Positions 17,860 to 29,886 of a stretch of DNA of 64,000 nucleotides are shown here, piece by piece. This DNA is from a bacterium UBP13_UBA5359 (GTDB lineage: Bacteria; UBP13; UBA5359). Every line of letters begins with the position of its first letter. The first letter of the stretch is position 1. The DNA is taken from positions 30,295 through 94,294 of the forward strand of contig DHPR01000010.1 of assembly GCA_002410925.1 (NCBI GenBank), read 5' to 3'. The translations under genes were made by a program, and so were the position numbers. The notes under the pieces were generated by a model. It saw only the letters and a list, made by a program, of their open reading frames with translations, was not told the DNA's origin and made no database searches.

Positions 17860-18972
17860 ATGACACGACGTATAAACAGAGAACAGGGCATTCCCATTTA
17901 CCGCCAGTTGAAAGAGATACTGCGCCGGGCTATTTTTGATGAATTCAATCCCGGCGATAAATTCTACTCCGAGGGACAGATCGCGCGGAAGTATGATGTT
18001 TCCAGCATGACTGTAAACAAGGTTATCTGCGAACTGGCGCTGGAAGGCCTGCTTTACAGGGTGCAGGGAAAAGGCACTTTTATAAGCAATAGAGAAGTTG
18101 GGCAGAAAAAAAATATAGTAGTTCTCTTGCCTCTGGAAACACCGGAGATATTCAGCGATGAGTTCTTCAGTATTATCTGGAAAGGCATGGAGAAAGAGGC
18201 TGGCATTCTGGGCCTGAATCTTATCACGGTCGGCTACTCCGAGCATAAGCGCAAGATGGAAGAGTATATAAATGTTTTGGATCATAACGGAATCAAAGGC
18301 GCCGTTTTACTGGATATCGGAGCCAATGAATTGCTCTATCTGCGGGATGCCGGCATTCCTGTGGTTCTGCTCGATTATATCCGTTCCACAGGCGATGGCA
18401 TTGTCAGCATATCCACCGATAATGTCGACGGTGCGATAGAGATCGTCGAATATCTGATCGGCCTGGGGCATAAAAGGATTGCCTGTATAGGTGCTCTGAC
18501 GGAAAGCCCCAGTTTCTCCGAGAGGATCAAAGGCTACAGGACAGCTTTGACGAGACGAGGGCTGAAGGCCGATGAAGAGCTGATACGCATCAGCGACCGG
18601 AGCTTGCTGAAAGACAGAGGCAAAGCGGCCATGTTTAATTGCGGCTATCGGACCATGAAGGAGTTGCTGAAGAGCAAAAAGCATTTCACGGCTGTTTTTG
18701 CCGTCAATGATACCATAGCGTTAGGCGCCGTCAAGGCTATAAAGGAGGAGGGGCTATCCATTCCTCAGGATATCAGTATCGCCGGCTTTGACGGGACTGT
18801 CTCGGCTGGAAAGTCCGACCCGCCCTTGACCACTATGAACATCTTTACCGAAAAGATGGGGCGATTGGCGGTGCGGATGCTGAACGATATTACGGTTGCC
18901 GATGAACCCAGGGAGATAATGATATCTTCGCAGTTGATTGTCAGGGAATCCTGCCGGCGCCTGGACGGATAG
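17860..18972 (+). CDS. Transcriptional regulator, GntR-type HTH fused to a LacI/PBP1-type sugar-binding domain
   Basis: N-terminal GntR winged helix (YRQLKEIL ... SEGQIARKYDVSSMTVNKVICEL). C-terminal LacI-like core (AVFAVNDTIALGAVKAIKEEGLSIPQDISIAGFDG). Confidence 0.75.
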   Translation: MTRRINREQGIPIYRQLKEILRRAIFDEFNPGDKFYSEGQIARKYDVSSMTVNKVICELALEGLLYRVQGKGTFISNREVGQKKNIVVLLPLETPEIFSDEFFSIIWKGMEKEAGILGLNLITVGYSEHKRKMEEYINVLDHNGIKGAVLLDIGANELLYLRDAGIPVVLLDYIRSTGDGIVSISTDNVDGAIEIVEYLIGLGHKRIACIGALTESPSFSERIKGYRTALTRRGLKADEELIRISDRSLLKDRGKAAMFNCGYRTMKELLKSKKHFTAVFAVNDTIALGAVKAIKEEGLSIPQDISIAGFDGTVSAGKSDPPLTTMNIFTEKMGRLAVRMLNDITVADEPREIMISSQLIVRESCRRLDG

Positions 18973-19030
18973 ACCAGCAAGGGGATAAAAACATATCTTT
19001 AAAAGGGGTTTTGAAAGGAGGGAGCCGATA

Positions 19031-19735
19031 GTGCCGATGACAGCACATTTTATTTATCGAAAAAAGAAGGGCTTTACTTTAATCGAACTTTTAGTCGTTA
19101 TTGCTATAATAGCATTGCTGGCAGCCATATTATTTCCTGTCTTTTCACGGGTCAGAGAGAAGGCCAGGCAGACGACCTGTGCCAATAATCTCAAGCAGAT
19201 TTACCTGGCGATATCGATGTATGCCAGCGATAACGATGGCTATTTCCCGTCCGGTTGGCAATATTATCCTTATCATGGAGGTTATCCTTACGTTGGAGCC
19301 TGGGCATGGATGACAGGGCTTTATCCGTCATATGCGCCCTCCAAGGAAATATTCTTTTGTCCGGGCACCAGCAGCGCCTTCAAGGGACGAGAGCACTTTA
19401 TAAAAACTTGGGGGGGCTACCAAACCGGGTATTTTTACTGGCCTGATTGCGACGGACGGTGGGCCGGCGGGGTGGCATATGGGTATTATCGTAGCTATAT
19501 GGGGCGCTCGGCCGGTTACGTGGCGCCTTTGGGGCCTGTCGCGGAGGATGACGATCACGGGAAGCCCATCGTGCAGGACGCGTGGGTGGGAAGAGGGGCT
19601 GCTAACAGCAATCATGCGGCACCGGGAGGCCAGCCCTACGGCTTGAACTGTCTCTTTTTTGAAGGCAATGTTATTCATTATCCGTCAGAGAAATTATCAT
19701 TGTACGGCAGTGGTACTTTGATATGCCGACCGTAA
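19031..19735 (+). CDS. Prepilin-type N-terminal cleavage/methylation domain protein (DUF1559-like)
   Basis: Class III signal [46 protein letters not shown] and a degenerate C-terminal NCLFFEGNV element. Confidence 0.7.
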
Positions 19736-19773
19736 GGCGGTTTTTAAAATTAATTGTAAGGAGATGGTCGATA

Positions 19774-21042
19774 ATGAAGATGATAAAAGTTTTGTCTGGT
19801 ACGGCAATTTATTTGCTTTTGAGCTTGCTGTTCGCAAGCATCGTTTGTGCGGATACGGGGCAGGGTGAAGAGAAGAGAATATACTTTCCGGTAACCGCTC
19901 TGGGAAATCCCGGCTTCGAGATAGGCGCCCTGGCGGAAAAAATTAGCTCACCGATGTGGGGCCTGGCACAGGTTACCCGGGTTGGCAGCTACGGTTTGGA
20001 TACCAATGATGCTTGCAGCGGAACGGCCTCTTATAAGATCAGTTCCGAAAGTGCGGAAGGATGGGGCTATCTGACTGGAAATAGCATAGGAGCCTGGCGG
20101 ATAGTTCCAGGGGCCAAGTACCGCCTGAAGGTCTGGATGAAGGGAGAGGGGATCTCGTCCGGTGCCGCATGGGCGAATTTAGTCTGGTACAAGGAAGATG
20201 GAAGTATTATTAGAGGCGGCGGTGTTTCAGTGCGTGCTGCAGAGCAATCTTTTGTCTGGAAGGAGTTTGTTTCTCAATCGGTTGAGATTCCGGTTGATGC
20301 CAGTCATTATTGCATTCAAATCGGTGTCGGTCCTAAGTTTGCAGGCACCGTTCGCTTTGATGACATAGCGCTCGAAGTCGATCGTCCGCTGGAAGTGCCT
20401 ACGGCGAAGAAGGGCTTGGTGGCCTACTGGAATTTCGATGAAGGCCAGGGGGAGATACTACACGACAGCTCCGAATATGGAAACAACGGCCAGATTACCA
20501 ATCCCGTTTGGCAGGAGGGTATAGCCGGAAAAGCGCTTCTTTTAAGCAAGGATACTCGCGTAATGGTGCCGCACCATCCGTCATACATCTTTCGTGATGG
20601 TGAATTCAGTCTGGAAGCGTGGGTCAAGCCGCTGAAAAAAAGCGGTCACAATGTTATTCTTTTCAAGGGTGTGAACATCAATCTTCCGTGTGAATACTAC
20701 TTCGGCACGCTGAACAATGATATCCGCCTGCTTGGCGGCGACATACAGGAAAGCTATATTCGTACAGCGCTTGCTGAAAATGAATGGAATCACCTGGTTG
20801 TCAGCGGAGATGGTAAAGTAGCTAGAGTTTATCACAACGGCAGATTTTACGGCGTTTGTAACTATTCATACCTCTATTTCACGACTCGCCCTTTATGGAT
20901 TGGTTTTGAGCCGGGGTATGGGACATCTTTCAATGGTCTTGTTGATGAACTGAAGATCTATAACAGAGCGCTTTCCCGAGAGGAAATCAATGACCATTAT
21001 GAGCAGTTTGCCGTGCCCGTCGCAGAACAACAAAAGAAGTGA
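19774..21042 (+). CDS. Secreted LamG / concanavalin-A-like lectin domain protein
   Basis: Signal peptide after the ATG with an AAGGAG RBS. C-terminal LamG pattern (LVAYWNFDEG ... LVDELKIYNRALSREEI). Confidence 0.6.
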   Translation: MKMIKVLSGTAIYLLLSLLFASIVCADTGQGEEKRIYFPVTALGNPGFEIGALAEKISSPMWGLAQVTRVGSYGLDTNDACSGTASYKISSESAEGWGYLTGNSIGAWRIVPGAKYRLKVWMKGEGISSGAAWANLVWYKEDGSIIRGGGVSVRAAEQSFVWKEFVSQSVEIPVDASHYCIQIGVGPKFAGTVRFDDIALEVDRPLEVPTAKKGLVAYWNFDEGQGEILHDSSEYGNNGQITNPVWQEGIAGKALLLSKDTRVMVPHHPSYIFRDGEFSLEAWVKPLKKSGHNVILFKGVNINLPCEYYFGTLNNDIRLLGGDIQESYIRTALAENEWNHLVVSGDGKVARVYHNGRFYGVCNYSYLYFTTRPLWIGFEPGYGTSFNGLVDELKIYNRALSREEINDHYEQFAVPVAEQQKK

Positions 21043-21050
21043 GGAAGCGA

Positions 21051-22997
21051 ATGATGTCCGGAATAACAAAAGTACGGCTGCTGGGGGTTCTTCTTTTCAT
21101 TGCCTGCTCCTGCTTCACGCAACTGCGGGTTGCTGCAGGCGATAAACTGACGCAATATATAGTCGGAGCTGTTTGCCGTCCTGATCGGTTGCAGGATGCC
21201 GCCGGCAGATCGGTAATATATCGGGAGAATCTCCATATATATATATCCAATCCTGGAAAGGAATCTTTGAAGATTGAGAGTGTAAGGATAAACGGCAAAG
21301 ATTTGCAGGCAGAAATAACCGCCGATAATATCCTGTGGTATACCATCAATCCTTTGGAAGTATCGCCATTGGCATATGGAGAGTTGATCGTTCGATATAT
21401 GGAGACAGGCATGGCGCCGACTGCTGTCAAAGTGGAATTGCTTGATGCTCAAAAAAGGGTTTTAGGCAGTGGCACAGTACCGGTGATTTTACAGGAACCG
21501 GTCATCTGCCAAGCCATAGGTTTTGAGGAAGACTACAAAACAATCTATCTTTATATTTCACCGGCGAATATAGAGAATGTCACCATAAAAGAAGTTTATT
21601 GCAATGGTAAAAAAGTTGCATTTGGGGGGGAAGGCATATTAAAAAAGGGTTGTATAAGCCCTATGGTTATCGGTCTTTCTCAGCCGGTCGGCAAGCATGA
21701 ATTTGTCATGCTTGAACTGATAACCGATAAAGGAACCAGTCGCCTTTTTTCCAGGGTCATTGAGCCTTTTTTCTCTATCGGCATGTACCGTTGTCACAGG
21801 TACGGCGGTAATTTTCAACCGGCGCAGCGCAACAGATATGAACGTAATTTTGGTAAATGGGCGCAACCATATCTGGAATATCTTACGGGGCCGGACCGGG
21901 CCGGTTATGCTGTGCCGGAGTGGCTTGACGATTGCCGAAAGCATCTTATCAATACGATAGCGCCCGATTTTACTACTTGGATCAGCCCTTTGAAAGCGGT
22001 TGATTTACTGAAAGAAAGAGATCTAAGATTGGTCAGTACAAAATACGGTCAGGAAATAATCTCTTACCCCGGCTTACACTCCCTTTATCTGGCCGACGAG
22101 CCGGCCGGCATTGATGCGGCGCGCTCATTGACCGAACGCTTGCAGAAGTTGCGTAAATCTTGTAATTCCGGTATCCCTTGCAAAATCGTCTTTTGCAATC
22201 TGGGCTGCTCACCCTGCGATTTCACTTATATTGATGCCGCTGATTTTGACACTTATCCCATAGGCGCCTCGGCTCAGGGAAGACCATTTGGCATCGGCGG
22301 CGGCGTAAGAGCCTTGCGAGAAATAATGGCGCCGCGGCCGATAGGTTTTGTACCGCAGGCTTTTCGCAGTCATCCTGATAAGAAGACGGGAGGGGGTTGG
22401 AGACGCTTCCCTACACCTGATGAAGAGCGATGGATGGTATACAGCGCCGTTGCCAACGGTGCCAAAAGCATCACCTACTTTGCCTACTCTCTGGAAACAT
22501 ATGAACCCGTCGAGGGTGTGGGAACGGCAGCTCTTGTCGGTATCCCCGAGGCTGTAAACCTTTGGCGGGAGATCGGACGTCTCAATCTGGAATTAACCGT
22601 CATGGGGCCCTGGCTGATGAGAAGTTGCGTGCTGAAACAATACCGGACAAACGGTATAGAGATATCGGTTATAGGTGTCGGGGAAACTACATTGATTGTT
22701 ATACCTGTAAATCACAACTATTCTCTGTCGAAGGGCGAGCTTTACGAAGAATTTGTTCCAAAAGCCATGAAGAATATTCTTTTGCCTGTAAGCCTGCCCT
22801 CTTATATGAGTACAATTAAGAGTGCCTTTGAAGTTACTTATAAAGGCATGGAAGATCTGAATTTCACCATTACCGGAAGAGAGGCGGCAATCAACTTGCC
22901 TGCTTTGGAAACCGGTAAAATGATTGTTCTGACCTCGGCCTCAGACTTAAAAAACGAAGTAGAGGCCAGGCGACTATCCTTTGCCGGCATAGAGTAG
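21051..22997 (+). CDS. Secreted hypothetical protein, possible carbohydrate-active enzyme
   Basis: N-terminal signal peptide; no motif I can assign. Begins 8 nt after the upstream stop. Confidence 0.4.
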   Translation: MMSGITKVRLLGVLLFIACSCFTQLRVAAGDKLTQYIVGAVCRPDRLQDAAGRSVIYRENLHIYISNPGKESLKIESVRINGKDLQAEITADNILWYTINPLEVSPLAYGELIVRYMETGMAPTAVKVELLDAQKRVLGSGTVPVILQEPVICQAIGFEEDYKTIYLYISPANIENVTIKEVYCNGKKVAFGGEGILKKGCISPMVIGLSQPVGKHEFVMLELITDKGTSRLFSRVIEPFFSIGMYRCHRYGGNFQPAQRNRYERNFGKWAQPYLEYLTGPDRAGYAVPEWLDDCRKHLINTIAPDFTTWISPLKAVDLLKERDLRLVSTKYGQEIISYPGLHSLYLADEPAGIDAARSLTERLQKLRKSCNSGIPCKIVFCNLGCSPCDFTYIDAADFDTYPIGASAQGRPFGIGGGVRALREIMAPRPIGFVPQAFRSHPDKKTGGGWRRFPTPDEERWMVYSAVANGAKSITYFAYSLETYEPVEGVGTAALVGIPEAVNLWREIGRLNLELTVMGPWLMRSCVLKQYRTNGIEISVIGVGETTLIVIPVNHNYSLSKGELYEEFVPKAMKNILLPVSLPSYMSTIKSAFEVTYKGMEDLNFTITGREAAINLPALETGKMIVLTSASDLKNEVEARRLSFAGIE

Positions 22998-23051
22998 AGT
23001 GCTTTGGGCACTGCTCCCGATTTATCAATACTTGTGTGAGAGGTTGTTGTT

Positions 23052-26036
23052 ATGGCCTGGATGAAAAAAGCCGTGAAAGTATCTTTGTCGTTGTTTATTG
23101 CCGTTTTGTTCTTCGGCGGTGCCAAGGGTGACCGTGCCTGGTCGGAAGAAGTGGTTTTCGATAAGCATTTTGCCAATACGACGTGCATACCCGGCTATTT
23201 TGGCGGGCAAGCTTGGGAGTTTGACGGCCAAAAGAGCCATGCAATCTTTAAAACGCCTTTAAGGGAACTCGATAAATTCTCGGTCTCTTGTCGAGTAAAG
23301 CCTTACAGCTTTCAAAGCGGTACGATCATGGAGATACCGGGAAAACTAGGTTTATATCTCGATATTTTCAATACACACTGGGTGCGTTTCAAAACAAGTT
23401 TTAATAATCATATTCTTTTCACACCCGGTAACATCGTCATTGGGCATGATGTTTGGACTCATGTTGCCGTCACTTACGATGGTCGGCAACTGAAACTGCT
23501 TGTCAACGGGGTGCCGCTGGCCGAAAAAACAATAGCAGGTCAAACCCTGACTATCGACAAGGTTTATTGGGGTGCGGGAGATAAAGGTCAAGCATCTTTT
23601 CAAGGCGGAATTGATGAGCCGACTGTAACTGCCGGCTTCTCCGATTTCACAGGCCTCCTTGAGAAAGATTTTATGCAAAAAATGAATTTGTCGAAAAAGA
23701 ATGGATCGATGGCAATAACCGATGTTTCATATAGGAATGGCTATTGCGTTGTCTGGGTAACGGGACCAACGGAGATGATAGCCAGAGATGCGGAGCCTGC
23801 TTTATCGAAGAAGGATGCCAAGGTGGAAATGGCGCAAAATGAAGTGGAAAGCCTACAGATCGTTATTCGTCCCTTGCAGGATCTGGATAATGTCGAAATA
23901 AAGGTCTCCGATCTCAAAAATGAGCGGGGGGATATGTTCCCTGCATCCGGGATCACCCTTCACAAAATAAAGTATATCTATAACCCGCCGGAGCTTTTCG
24001 GCACTGGATGTCGTCGGAAAAAGGATGGCTTCTATCCGGATGCGTTGCCAATAGTGAATGATCCTTGCAAGCTTCAATCATCAACAGGCAATCAGCCCTT
24101 TCTGCTTAGCTTTTCCACTTTTGACGGGGTGGCATCCGGAAAGTACAGCGGTCGCCTGGTGATTGAATCTGTAAACGCCCCGGCGATGACTATTCCGCTG
24201 GATGTTACTGTTTGGGACTTTGCTTTGACTCGGGAGTCCCATCTGCGTGGCGAGTTCAACATTCTTTATGGTCGGGGATGGAGGTTCCTCGAGAAGCATT
24301 ATGGCCTTAAATGGGGGAGCAAGGAATTAACGACGATGTATAAAAAATACTATCAGATGCTGCTGAATCATCGTTTAAATCCGAAGGAGATACCGGTGGA
24401 TCTCTTTTCCAGGGAAGCAGACGATTACTTGCGCGATTCGCGGTTGAACAGTCATCCTGTTTTTGAATATAGCGGCGGCTTGCGTTGGATAAAACGCAAA
24501 GGCGCATTTCCGGCAGAGGAATCAATAGATTATGTCGATAAAAGCAAATTGGAAAGAGCGGTTTCCCTATTGAAGCAGAAGGGGCATTGGCACAAGAGTT
24601 ATTTTTGCCCTCAAAATATTATTGATGAAGCAGGTCCAGCAGAGGCTCATTATGTTCATAGAGTAAAGAAGCTTTTCACGGAGATTGCTGCGGATGCCAA
24701 GTTGGCATTGGCATGCAACTATCACTCTGAACTGGAGGGAGCGGTAGATATTTGGATGCTGCATTGCCTGAAGTTCAACCCCTTTCTGGCTAAAATGCTT
24801 CAGGCGAAGGGCAACGAAGTATATCTTTATTTGGCCGACAGCATGGGAGGACGATATCCGAATTATTACCTCAGTTTTCCCCGTTCTGAAACCAGAGCAA
24901 TGGGTTGGTTATATTGGCTTTATGATCTTCAGGGATATGAATATTATTCCGTTAATTTATGGTACAAGAACCCTTGGCAAAAAGCCATGCCCAGTAACAA
25001 CGAGGATGAGAATTTCCAGGGTGTGCTCATCTATCCTGGTCCGGACGGCCCAGTCAGTTCTTTGCGATTGGAGGCCATCAGGGATGGTATGGAAGATTAT
25101 GAATATTTATGGCAGCTAAAAAAAAGGCTCCGTTCGGTCTCTGAAAAGCTAAACCTGTCCGATGAGGGTATAGATAAAATGGTAAAGCGATGCTGCGAAT
25201 TTGTTGCACCGGCATTAAACAGAGTGCCGAACAAGCCGAGCGTAATCTATAAAATGAGAAAAAGACTCGCTGAGAAAATACTTCTTTTGGATAGAGATAT
25301 CTGGCTTGATGTTCCGTTCGATAAAATATTCATCGGCCATGACGAAAAAAATATCATGATAAAGGGCAAAGTTCTCTCTGGAACATTTTTGCAAATTAAT
25401 GATCAAAAAATCAAAGTCGCCGAGGACGGAACCTTTAGTTTTGAATGGCGTATACCGCATGGCAATGAAGTCTGCATAACGATAAACAATGGTACCCTTA
25501 CCTTTTATCGTGAAAAGAAGAGAATGAACGATAAATATGGTTGGGCGGAAACAATCGATGTCGCTGACGGCAGCCCTGCCGGGCGATATGATTTCAACCT
25601 GGATATTGTCAGGGTGGCAAAGAAGAATCCTGCTTTGGATCTAGTGAACTATGTTATGCCGAATATTCCCATGGTGGGACTGATGGAAAAGGGAAAAGCC
25701 TTTGTTGATTTTCAGATTGCCATCCCACAGAGCATCAGGACTTGTCAGCTCTCTTTTGCCTCGCTTCAAGGAGCGAACAGCGGGAATTATGTAAATGTAT
25801 ATGTCGGAAGCGCCGGCAGTTGGAAGAGGGTCTATGAAGGGAAAAACGGCTACAGTGATTGCCGGCTTTACGATGTGACTATTTCTGCTGATGACCTGCT
25901 TCCGCATTGTAGCGCCAAAGAATCTTTATTGCTTCGTCTGGAGTTTGTGAATATCTCCGGCAGAGGCTTTGCAGGTATCTCTTCGCATTCATGTAAGCCG
26001 TTTTTTACGGCTCTTTGCAATGGTATCGATATGTAG
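23052..26036 (+). CDS. Secreted LamG-domain protein with DUF4091/GH123-like region
   Basis: Signal peptide and an N-terminal LamG-like domain. Shares the motif YPGPDGPVSSLRLEAIRDGMEDYEYL with the 27195..28847 gene product. Confidence 0.45.
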   Translation: MAWMKKAVKVSLSLFIAVLFFGGAKGDRAWSEEVVFDKHFANTTCIPGYFGGQAWEFDGQKSHAIFKTPLRELDKFSVSCRVKPYSFQSGTIMEIPGKLGLYLDIFNTHWVRFKTSFNNHILFTPGNIVIGHDVWTHVAVTYDGRQLKLLVNGVPLAEKTIAGQTLTIDKVYWGAGDKGQASFQGGIDEPTVTAGFSDFTGLLEKDFMQKMNLSKKNGSMAITDVSYRNGYCVVWVTGPTEMIARDAEPALSKKDAKVEMAQNEVESLQIVIRPLQDLDNVEIKVSDLKNERGDMFPASGITLHKIKYIYNPPELFGTGCRRKKDGFYPDALPIVNDPCKLQSSTGNQPFLLSFSTFDGVASGKYSGRLVIESVNAPAMTIPLDVTVWDFALTRESHLRGEFNILYGRGWRFLEKHYGLKWGSKELTTMYKKYYQMLLNHRLNPKEIPVDLFSREADDYLRDSRLNSHPVFEYSGGLRWIKRKGAFPAEESIDYVDKSKLERAVSLLKQKGHWHKSYFCPQNIIDEAGPAEAHYVHRVKKLFTEIAADAKLALACNYHSELEGAVDIWMLHCLKFNPFLAKMLQAKGNEVYLYLADSMGGRYPNYYLSFPRSETRAMGWLYWLYDLQGYEYYSVNLWYKNPWQKAMPSNNEDENFQGVLIYPGPDGPVSSLRLEAIRDGMEDYEYLWQLKKRLRSVSEKLNLSDEGIDKMVKRCCEFVAPALNRVPNKPSVIYKMRKRLAEKILLLDRDIWLDVPFDKIFIGHDEKNIMIKGKVLSGTFLQINDQKIKVAEDGTFSFEWRIPHGNEVCITINNGTLTFYREKKRMNDKYGWAETIDVADGSPAGRYDFNLDIVRVAKKNPALDLVNYVMPNIPMVGLMEKGKAFVDFQIAIPQSIRTCQLSFASLQGANSGNYVNVYVGSAGSWKRVYEGKNGYSDCRLYDVTISADDLLPHCSAKESLLLRLEFVNISGRGFAGISSHSCKPFFTALCNGIDM

Positions 26037-26107
26037 CAAAAAGGTTGGGATAGAAGCTTGTCCGGTAATCTCTGTTTCTAAAAAAGCGATGTCGGAGGGA
26101 TAAGATA

Positions 26108-27202
26108 ATGCGGATGAAAATTGCTTTGGTGGTTTTACTCTTTTTAGCCATACCCGTGAAGAATATTTCCGCGCTGGTGTATGACCTGGATTGCTCTGCT
26201 CCGGCAGTAAACGGCATGGTAGTTAATGAAAAAGGAGTTCCTATCTTTAATGCTGTCAGCATGATGGTCTCCGTTGATCCGGGTGCAACATTCAAATACT
26301 ATATGGTGAGTGATTTCAACGGCTGGCTTTTTTATGATCATTTTGATGCTCTGGAAGTGGGCTACAGAGGCGGATTTGCGGTAACGGCTTATCATCATGG
26401 TCATGAAACGGCTACCGCTTACGGCGTTGTTGCCGGAGATATGCTGTATGGGAAAAAGTCTTTGAAATTGAAGAAGGGAAAACGGAGCAGCAAAACAGAA
26501 TTTGTAGGAGGGACCGTTACTGCCGCACCACCGGGTGTTTATCTGGCTTTTTGGAAAAACGAGATATTGAAACGCTACGATGCGGTCGTTTTTTGTTCGC
26601 TTCCCTGGCGGAATATTAGCCTGCGCGTGGCCAGTGGCAGTAAAAGCGAAAATCGGGCTAAGCAATACAATAATAGCTACTTTTTTCACTATTCACCGGC
26701 TGCATCCGAGCGATTCGCTGTGTTTAAATTGCAAGGATACGACAACCGCGGCAAAAGATGTGAACGGTTATTCAAGATGAACTTTGATGCCGATTATCAA
26801 AACACCGGTTTTCTTTCTCGTAACGGAGGCGTTATTCCCATTGGCAAGGATGATCGAAGCCGGCTGGAGGTATTGCCGGGAACTTATTCGGGCAGGCACA
26901 ATGTAGCCATAACCATCAGGCGTTACTCTTCAAAGGAGCCTTCTCAACCGGGATATATTTATGAACTTGCGCCTGAATTGAGTTTTCGCCGGGATGCGGA
27001 TCTGGTTCTGGCTCTACCCGAATGGGGTGCGCCTGCGGCCTGGAAGGTGGCTCGCTATGATGAAGAAACGAAAAAGTGGCTGAAGTGCCGATATGATACG
27101 GATGCCGCTGCCGGAGTTGTACGCATCAAAACGAGACGGACGGGCAAGTTTCGTCTCAGCCTGGAGGAGAAAATGTTAGGGGAGGACAAAGGAGATGAGT
27201 AA
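26108..27202 (+). CDS. Secreted hypothetical protein
   Basis: Signal peptide (MRMKIALVVLLFLAIPVKNISA). The stop overlaps the next start. Confidence 0.4.
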   Translation: MRMKIALVVLLFLAIPVKNISALVYDLDCSAPAVNGMVVNEKGVPIFNAVSMMVSVDPGATFKYYMVSDFNGWLFYDHFDALEVGYRGGFAVTAYHHGHETATAYGVVAGDMLYGKKSLKLKKGKRSSKTEFVGGTVTAAPPGVYLAFWKNEILKRYDAVVFCSLPWRNISLRVASGSKSENRAKQYNNSYFFHYSPAASERFAVFKLQGYDNRGKRCERLFKMNFDADYQNTGFLSRNGGVIPIGKDDRSRLEVLPGTYSGRHNVAITIRRYSSKEPSQPGYIYELAPELSFRRDADLVLALPEWGAPAAWKVARYDEETKKWLKCRYDTDAAAGVVRIKTRRTGKFRLSLEEKMLGEDKGDE

Positions 27203-28847
27203 TACCGCGAAAATAAACAACCATGATCAATCCGGAATAATCAGTGTCTGGCTGGCAAACTCGTTACGCCGTTTCTACTTGGCATCACCAGCGGAAGAGT
27301 ATAAGCCACTGTTGCTTGAGGCTGCCCGGGGAGAACGTTGTTCTTTTCAGGTTGTTATCCGTACCGGAGAACGCCCGCTAACAGTTTGCGCCGAGGCGCA
27401 TGCTATCGGCGATTTGCCTGTAGAGGTGCGTCTGGCAGGTTATGTACCCATTCGGCATCTGACTATGGAAACACCGCTTGATGATATTGAGGGAGCCGGT
27501 TTCCTTCCCGGATATGCGCCGGACCCTCTTCTGCCAGTGAGTTTAGTGCAGGCAGGAGCGCATGAAACACATTCCTTCTGGATTACCGTTCAGGTGGGAA
27601 CGGAGGTCACACCAGGGCGCCATACGATTATGGTTATAATCCGGTCAGGGAAGTTAACGCCGCTATCCTGCGAGGTTACAGTGCTGGTGCACCGAGCCAT
27701 ATTACCGCCACGACGCAATTTCCCGGTAACACAGTGGTTCTATGCTGATGCACTTTGCGATTGGTACAAAGTGGAGCTCTTTGAAGAGCCTTTCTGGAAA
27801 ATCTTGAAAAGGTATTTATCCGATCTAAGCTTGCATGGGCAGGATACCGTCTATGTGCCGGCCTTCACGCCTTCCCTTGACGGAGTTAAGCGCCCGACAC
27901 AACTCTTGGATGTGCAAATCGAACAGGGTGAATACCGTTTTGACTGGTCCATGGTGGCTGCCTGGGTAAAAATGGCCAGAGAATGCGGCTTGTCCCGGTT
28001 TGAATGGCCGCATCTCTTTACTCAGTGGGGGGCAGACCGGGCAATCCGCATTTACGAGGGCCGGGCGGAAAACGGTAATCTTCTATGGCCGCCGGAAACC
28101 GGAGCGCTTTCCGAAACCTATCGCCGTTTCCTAGCTCGGTATCTTAGCGAACTGGAGCGCTTTCTGCATCTGGAAAAACTGACTGATTGCAGCTTTTTTC
28201 ATCTCTCTGACGAACCTCATGAGGACAGTCATTTTATCAACTATCGTGCAGCCAGAGGCATGTTAAGAGAACTGGCTCCGTGGATGAAGATCACGGATGC
28301 CTTGAGTGAACTTAAGTTTGCTTACGAGGGCTTGGTAGATATACCTGTGCCCGGTGTGCAACATGCTCCTGATTTTGTGGAGAAGGACTTCTTTGCCTGG
28401 GCTTATTTTTGTTGCGGCCCGCGCGGTCGCTATCTGAATCGTTTTCTGGATACACCTCTACTCAAATTAAGAATGGCCGGGTGGCTCTTTTTTAAACTGC
28501 AGGCCAGGGGATTTCTACATTGGGGGTATAACTACTGGTATAGATTTCAGACGACAGAGCTTATCGATCCGTATGCTGTTACCGACGGCCTTGCTTGGCC
28601 TAAAATCCCGCCCGGCGATACCTTTGTCGTCTATCCGGGAACGGACGGTCCGGTAGATTCCCTGCGCTGGGAAGTCTTTGCCGAGAGCCTTCAGGATTAT
28701 ACTTTGCTGCAGGCTGCCGCATCTGATCCAAACGCCCCAATGCTTGCCGGCATTCATGACTATGCCGATTTCCCACGTGATGTCGGCTGGATTGCTGCCC
28801 GTCGCAGCAAACTTCTGGCTGAGTTGGATAAGATAAATATGAAATAA
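27195..28847 (+). CDS. DUF4091/GH123-like protein, cytoplasmic paralog of the 23052..26036 C-terminal region
   Basis: No signal peptide. Motif VYPGTDGPVDSLRWEVF is paralogous to the motif in the upstream LamG fusion. Confidence 0.4.
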   Translation: MSNTAKINNHDQSGIISVWLANSLRRFYLASPAEEYKPLLLEAARGERCSFQVVIRTGERPLTVCAEAHAIGDLPVEVRLAGYVPIRHLTMETPLDDIEGAGFLPGYAPDPLLPVSLVQAGAHETHSFWITVQVGTEVTPGRHTIMVIIRSGKLTPLSCEVTVLVHRAILPPRRNFPVTQWFYADALCDWYKVELFEEPFWKILKRYLSDLSLHGQDTVYVPAFTPSLDGVKRPTQLLDVQIEQGEYRFDWSMVAAWVKMARECGLSRFEWPHLFTQWGADRAIRIYEGRAENGNLLWPPETGALSETYRRFLARYLSELERFLHLEKLTDCSFFHLSDEPHEDSHFINYRAARGMLRELAPWMKITDALSELKFAYEGLVDIPVPGVQHAPDFVEKDFFAWAYFCCGPRGRYLNRFLDTPLLKLRMAGWLFFKLQARGFLHWGYNYWYRFQTTELIDPYAVTDGLAWPKIPPGDTFVVYPGTDGPVDSLRWEVFAESLQDYTLLQAAASDPNAPMLAGIHDYADFPRDVGWIAARRSKLLAELDKINMK

Positions 28848-28866
28848 TCTAAGGGGCGATTTACCG

Positions 28867-29886
28867 ATGAAGATACAAAGGCATGCCGGCAACCCTATAC
28901 TTAAACCCGAACCCCTTAATCCCTGGGAGAGTATGGCAGTTTGCAATCCTACCGTTTGGTATGAGAACGGTCTCTTCCGCATGCTCTACCGGGCTGCCGG
29001 TGATGATGAGGCACACCGTATTTATCTGGGCCTGGCGGAGAGCCGGGACGGCATCAACTTTAAACGCGTATCTAACGATCCCGTGCTGGCCCCAAGTGCG
29101 GACGGCCCTGATGCCGGCTGCATTGAAGATCCTCGGGTGGTGAGGTTCGAAGGAGTCTTTTACATTACCTATGCCTATCGCCCCTTCCCTCCCGGGCGCT
29201 ACTGGCTGCATCCGGAAGGCATGGCTTACGCTCCCGGCAGCCCTGAAGGAGCGCCGCGGCTGATAAGAGAAAACCTGACCAATACCGGCCTGGCCATGTC
29301 TACCGATCTGCAAACTTTTATCCGGCTGGGACGCTTGACCGAAGCTAATTCAGATAACCGTGACGTGATGTTTTTTCCCGAGCGCATAAAAGGCAAATAT
29401 GTCCTTTTGCATCGAAAAAAGGAGTTGCCGGATACACCTTTCCCATCCATAAGGATCTCCTTTATGGAAGATCTGTTCGATTATAACGATGGTTTTCTGT
29501 TGGCCAGAAACCGGTACTGGTGGGAAACTAAAATGGGCGCCGGTTGCCCGCCGCTACGGACGGACGACGGCTGGCTGCTAATATACCATGCGGTCTGCCG
29601 CAAGGGAATATATCGTGCCGGGGCCATGCTTCTTGATCTGGAGAATCCTCGGGAAGTGATTGCACGCACGGCGGAACCTATACTTGAGCCGAAGTGTAAT
29701 TACGAGTGTTCCGGGCTTTACAGCGATTGCGTTTTTCCTACCGGTGCCGTCGTCGTTGGTGATATCCTCTATATTTACTATGGGGCGGCTGACAAGTGCA
29801 TCTGCTTGGCTACATGCAAGTTAAGCCGGCTTATAGATCACCTGTTGAAGAGAAGAAGGTTGATGCTCTTTGGAGCAAGCCTCTGA
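28867..29886 (+). CDS. GH130 family glycoside phosphorylase (beta-mannoside phosphorylase-like)
   Basis: N-terminal NPILKP ... WES ... CNPTV ... LYRAAG ... LGLAESRDGINF and a C-terminal YIYYGAADKCI pattern. Confidence 0.7.
   Translation: MKIQRHAGNPILKPEPLNPWESMAVCNPTVWYENGLFRMLYRAAGDDEAHRIYLGLAESRDGINFKRVSNDPVLAPSADGPDAGCIEDPRVVRFEGVFYITYAYRPFPPGRYWLHPEGMAYAPGSPEGAPRLIRENLTNTGLAMSTDLQTFIRLGRLTEANSDNRDVMFFPERIKGKYVLLHRKKELPDTPFPSIRISFMEDLFDYNDGFLLARNRYWWETKMGAGCPPLRTDDGWLLIYHAVCRKGIYRAGAMLLDLENPREVIARTAEPILEPKCNYECSGLYSDCVFPTGAVVVGDILYIYYGAADKCICLATCKLSRLIDHLLKRRRLMLFGASL

Follow-up and report, generated by a model that had tools for sequence, protein, structure and literature searches.

A predicted sugar-inducible catabolic operon combining GH123 and GH130 enzymes with a rare barrel-fold family in a UBP13 bacterium

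The gene cluster described here raises the question of which glycan its products would act on, and whether its genes form a single unit. The eight + strand open reading frames of the original prediction, a regulator and seven further genes, are present at their predicted positions within the 64-kb window, by which we mean the whole stretch of DNA analysed, and neighbouring genes do overlap or follow one another closely, at −13 to +71 nt (Table 1; distances between successive genes 1-8: 58, −13, −4, 54, 71, −8 and 19 nt). Spacers of 246 nt upstream and 646 nt downstream, the latter not conserved on comparison with the sister locus L001, separate the cluster from unrelated housekeeping genes, namely a V-type ATPase upstream and, downstream, an HD gene followed by a LytR-CpsA-Psr gene, which is thus two genes from the operon. 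Gene order is the same in metagenome contigs from sister species, at protein identities of ~74-84%, so the arrangement is not due to chance; the window's own arrangement was found on 14 contigs, for which the five places listed are five sample accessions. We consider it somewhat more likely than not that this is a sugar-inducible catabolic operon that dismantles a heteroglycan containing β-linked GalNAc (or another 2-acetamido sugar) and β-linked mannose, with a microbial exopolysaccharide or surface glycan as a plausible source. Every enzymatic step in this proposal rests on homology or fold.

Table 1. Genes of the cluster, their predicted products and the resources behind each assignment.
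Gene	Predicted product	Position	Strand	Basis
1	Regulator, GntR-type winged helix with LacI/PurR-type sugar sensor, 370 aa	17860..18972	+	Pfam
2	Type IV pilin/type II secretion pseudopilin-like protein, DUF1559 kind	19031..19735	+	Pfam, NCBIfam
3	Secreted two-module carbohydrate-binding protein, C-terminal LamG	19723..21042	+	Pfam
4	Secreted protein of a rare unannotated family, candidate glycoside hydrolase, 652 aa	21039..22997	+	
5	Secreted LamG-fused divergent GH123, 994 aa	23052..26036	+	Pfam, PDB relatives
6	Secreted protein, neighbours gene 5, 364 aa	26108..27202	+	No family match
7	Cytoplasmic GH123, NaNga/monosaccharide-releasing type, D339-E340, 550 aa	27195..28847	+	Pfam, PDB
8	Cytoplasmic GH130 β-mannoside phosphorylase, 339 aa	28867..29886	+	Pfam, PDB relatives

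Genes 5 and 7 had been described as DUF4091-like paralogs that share a YPGxDGPVxSLRxE block and lack an assigned activity. The block is indeed found in both (residues 661-674 and 480-493, respectively), but an activity can be assigned, as PF13320, formerly DUF4091, is now named GH123_cat and represents β-N-acetylgalactosaminidases, a family whose function and catalytic DE pair have been described (PMC11087588). The gene 7 product matches the full-length profile (4.2e-84) and aligns over residues 16-542, with the DEP kept, to the β-GalNAcase of Niabella aurantiaca (PDB 8p4l/8q8h, 6e-146), and is predicted to be an exo-β-N-acetylgalactosaminidase. In gene 5, a LamG domain (residues 59-191; Laminin_G_3, 7.3e-13) precedes a GH123 N-terminal β-sandwich (~233-408; GH123_N_2 at 23.6 bits, under the cut-off of 27) and a divergent catalytic barrel carrying D525-E526, which matches only the C-terminal half of the GH123_cat profile (3.6e-20); ~300 C-terminal residues lie outside recognised folds. 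Its best solved relative is the oligosaccharide-releasing β-GalNAcase 8k2f (4.8e-26), it also matches the oligosaccharide/monosaccharide-releasing 8k2j (2.1e-23), to whose DE its own DE is aligned, and its sister ortholog retains the pair. One characterised member of the group nearest to gene 5, NgaMg, was inactive on every substrate tested (PMC11087588). The presence of two GH123 proteins with a catalytic Asp-Glu indicates that the target most likely carries β-GalNAc or HexNAc in addition to mannose, and the CAZy domains of the cluster extend beyond GH130, to which a confinement had been named, along with a lack of co-expression, as grounds for rejecting the original prediction.

The mannose component is suggested by gene 8, for which the earlier assignment as a cytoplasmic GH130 phosphorylase holds. 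The product matches the family profile (Pfam, 2.1e-49), its N-terminus is free of a hydrophobic segment, and all phosphorylase residues are present (key residues R42, E87-D88, R165, R183, H241 and D309), with the proton donor D88 and the phosphate-binding R183/H241 in place. In overall similarity the β-1,2-mannoside enzymes are nearest, including the β-1,2-oligomannan phosphorylase Teth514_1788 (PDB 9fj8, 1.7e-56), from which gene 8 differs by a ~25-residue insertion after residue 104; 7fip follows at 3.4e-50, and the NCBIfam model for β-1,2-mannobiose phosphorylase scores 226 bits, under its cut-off of 450. When the residues were mapped against the rules of PMC7660257, the pair E87/R165 gave the β-1,3 signature, an E/R pair being tied to β-1,3-mannosides (Li et al. 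2020) by a published statistical predictor that is not a proof, and the β-1,4 signature seen in enzymes for mannan or N-glycans was absent. This residue signature points to a β-1,3 linkage, with β-1,2 as the alternative.

Gene 4, previously left without assignment, has no match in Pfam or NCBIfam, and its family is without any Pfam, NCBIfam or PDB member; the nearest named relative comes from a Victivallaceae MAG, and the uncultured host is probably a Lentisphaerota-like member of the PVC group. The structure prediction proposed earlier for genes 4 and 6 succeeded for gene 4 (pLDDT 90), whereas the AF2 model of gene 6 was poor (pLDDT 49.9). Two N-terminal β-sandwiches (~41-240), a (β/α)8 barrel (~245-527) and a C-terminal β-sandwich (530-632) make up the gene 4 model, whose top structural matches all belong to clan GH-A, led by a GH164 β-mannosidase with several GH5 mannanases and mannosidases next. 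Judged by its model, gene 4 is a GH42/GH164-like (β/α)8 glycoside-hydrolase-like protein. Its conserved residues are D353-E354-P355, D399, D404, Y406, Q440, R456, E462 and K476, and the family profile aligns the DEP with the acid/base motif of GH42, while the GH42 nucleophile falls on L, P or V at position 439 rather than on Glu. Clan GH-A enzymes have Asn-Glu at the acid/base site, whereas gene 4 has Asp-Glu and no nucleophile Glu on strand 7; among the ~120 relatives covering the site, 73 have Asp-Glu and none has Asn-Glu. In GH20, an Asp in this position is the hallmark of 2-acetamido polarisation. The same hallmark, an Asp before the Glu that polarises the 2-acetamido group, is established for GH123 (PMC11087588). 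Taken with the missing strand-7 Glu, substrate assistance is the most economical reading of the gene 4 active site.

The original prediction treated the locus as a single unit, which does not hold, as comparison of loci shows that the operon was assembled in evolution from a core (genes 2, 3, 4 and 8), a GH123 module (genes 5 and 6) and gene 7, which was inserted recently. Two loci of greater divergence again hold the core of pilin-like, LamG, barrel-family and GH130 proteins; one of these is truncated upstream, so that the pilin there could not be scored. One of the two, L002, combines a pair of gene-4 paralogs with a ROK-family HTH protein and an orthologous GH130, and in the other, L023, a pilin and a GH130 accompany two gene-4 paralogs fused to LamG; both GH130 orthologs have identical key residues and the insertion, and adjoin the gene-4-family genes. 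Identity between the window and L023 is 62% for the pilin, 53% for GH130 and 39-40% for gene 4, by which comparison the pilin is the best-conserved protein of the module. LamG folds had been proposed for two secreted proteins and were recovered in genes 3 and 5. In gene 3 the Laminin_G_3 match spans residues 278-423 (3.7e-23), and the N-terminal domain looks by eye, from sequence alone, like a jelly-roll CBM. Over residues 47-428, gene 3 shares 42% identity with the N-terminal 370 aa of P0007, a protein that joins gene-3-like modules to a gene-4-type catalytic region, and LamG is fused to the gene-4 domain also in P0003, P0008 and P0015; gene 3 corresponds, in split-off form, to the N-terminal modules of such enzymes. 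The two diverged loci, the fusion in P0007 and the conservation of the pilin together suggest a functional link between the gene-4 family and GH130. Members of the gene-4 family are fused to LamG, CBM9, NPCBM and F5/8-C modules, and distant members occur in glycan gene clusters, one of them flanked by two DUF4838 proteins.

Genes 5 and 6 form the second module; on the 1.4-kb contig L007 a 42%-identical homolog of gene 6 again lies 3' of a gene-5-like C-terminus. Gene 6 has a β-rich C-terminal half, no family match in Pfam or NCBIfam even at E=10, and three homologs among 5.8 billion proteins. Gene 7 is a precise one-gene insertion: positions 27191-28823 of the window are missing from L001 (blastn), L001, L003, L004, L006 and L034 lack the gene, and the window's own lineage carries it on 14 contigs. 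Outside this lineage the nearest homologs are 63-64% identical, and the operon of the closest encodes, besides an ABC sugar importer, a NagA-like deacetylase and two kinases, one ROK and one PfkB, an amino-sugar catabolic context; another homolog lies near a GH2 β-mannosidase-like gene and NagA.

These observations bear on three other interpretations, of which one concerns gene 4 itself. It might be an ordinary two-carboxylate hydrolase of the clan GH-A type, such as an endo- or exo-β-1,3- or β-1,2-mannanase feeding GH130, with E354 as acid/base, E462 (or, in some relatives, Glu440) as nucleophile or base, and no acetamido sugar needed where the substrate is cut. With 131 of 151 relatives retaining it, E462 could serve as a second catalytic carboxylate that has shifted position, and 22 of 150 relatives carry Glu at position 440. 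However, E462 begins helix 7 (460-472 in the model), ~20 residues beyond the end of strand 7, an unusual site for a nucleophile; Asp-Glu, with its link to 2-acetamido polarisation, is the rule in the family and Asn-Glu never occurs; and the L002 module comes with a ROK-family HTH protein, a class that includes NagC/Mlc-type amino-sugar regulators. We therefore regard this interpretation as possible but doubtful.

That the target is instead centred on mannose, as plant β-mannan or an N-glycan core from which the LamG and DUF4091 proteins trim side groups while GH130 performs the essential step, seems improbable to us. Characterised GH130 enzymes do act on β-mannosides, GH130 accompanies the gene-4 family in all three diverged loci, and the best fold matches of gene 4 are mannosidases and mannanases. 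Yet Pfam and NCBIfam found in the operon no GH26, GH5 or GH113 mannanase, no GH18, GH85 or GH20 N-glycan enzyme, no α-mannosidase and no epimerase, and the Asp of gene 4 replaces the O2-binding Asn of all clan GH-A mannanases and mannosidases, with the nucleophile missing. Outside trimming followed by inside phosphorolysis survives from the original prediction, but its mannan or N-glycan substrate is weakened by the missing β-1,4 signature and the two GH123 enzymes, which indicate β-GalNAc and make a β-GalNAc/β-Man heteroglycan likelier than plain mannan or N-glycan. We judge it very unlikely that the genes serve to turn over or remodel the surface polysaccharide of the cell itself, with an exopolysaccharide of its own making as the target of the secreted hydrolases and with β-mannosides recycled or even built by GH130. 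Such a role would accord with the weak transferase activity of some GH130 enzymes, with the weak use of GDP-mannose by β-1,2 and β-1,3 phosphorylases (PMC12814180), with distant gene-4 relatives inside glycan biosynthesis clusters (GT2, GT4, epimerase, GDP-mannose dehydratase), and with the LytR-CpsA-Psr gene downstream and the UDP-GlcNAc 2-epimerase and GT4 genes 11 kb upstream. Against it stand the LacI-type sugar-sensing regulator, the absence from the operon of any glycosyltransferase, flippase or polymerase (Pfam, NCBIfam), the spacing of the flanking genes with a downstream gap that is not conserved, the lack of biosynthetic genes at L002 and L023, and the gain of gene 7, a cytoplasmic exo-GalNAcase, which is easier to reconcile with nutrition because its nearest relative belongs to an operon for import and catabolism.

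For catabolism of a β-GalNAc/β-mannose heteroglycan, the reading we prefer, the gene 1 regulator would sense a sugar product and control genes 2-8 accordingly. The predicted hybrid architecture is borne out (GntR, residues 14-75, 1.1e-11; Peripla_BP_3, residues 196-365, 1.7e-33; sub-threshold NCBIfam matches to CytR, RbsR and PurR), and an ortholog stands before the operon in the sister contigs. Four proteins would then be exported, the signal peptides of genes 3-6 being called from hydrophobic N-termini and, for gene 4, also from the N-terminal helix of its model. Gene 3 and the LamG module of gene 5 would bind the polymer, and gene 5 and gene 4, whose family and fold are established, would cut it to oligosaccharides; that gene 4 cleaves beside a 2-acetamido or 2-amino sugar by substrate assistance, as in GH20 and GH123, is in our estimate an evenly balanced proposition. 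The transporter through which the oligosaccharides enter would be encoded outside the window, in which no transporter, sugar kinase, phosphomannomutase or GalNAc catabolic gene was found, leaving import and downstream steps without local support. In the cytoplasm, GH130 and phosphate would take off non-reducing β-mannose, predicted to be β-1,3-linked, as α-mannose-1-phosphate, and in this lineage only, gene 7 would strip terminal β-GalNAc from imported fragments.

Gene 2, a dedicated and strongly conserved component of the module, may, more speculatively, work with a type II secretion or type IV filament machine encoded elsewhere, in the export or display of enzymes or in product capture. As anticipated, it is a DUF1559-like protein with a canonical class-III signal (KKKG|FTLIELLVV, residues 14-23), matching N_methyl (2e-10), IV_pilin_GFxxxE (34.8 bits against a cut-off of 16.3) and, in its N-terminal part only (profile positions 3-49), DUF1559/SBP_bac_10 (6.3e-9). 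Its true start is likely the ATG at 19037, and it is the sole gene of the pilin kind in the window.

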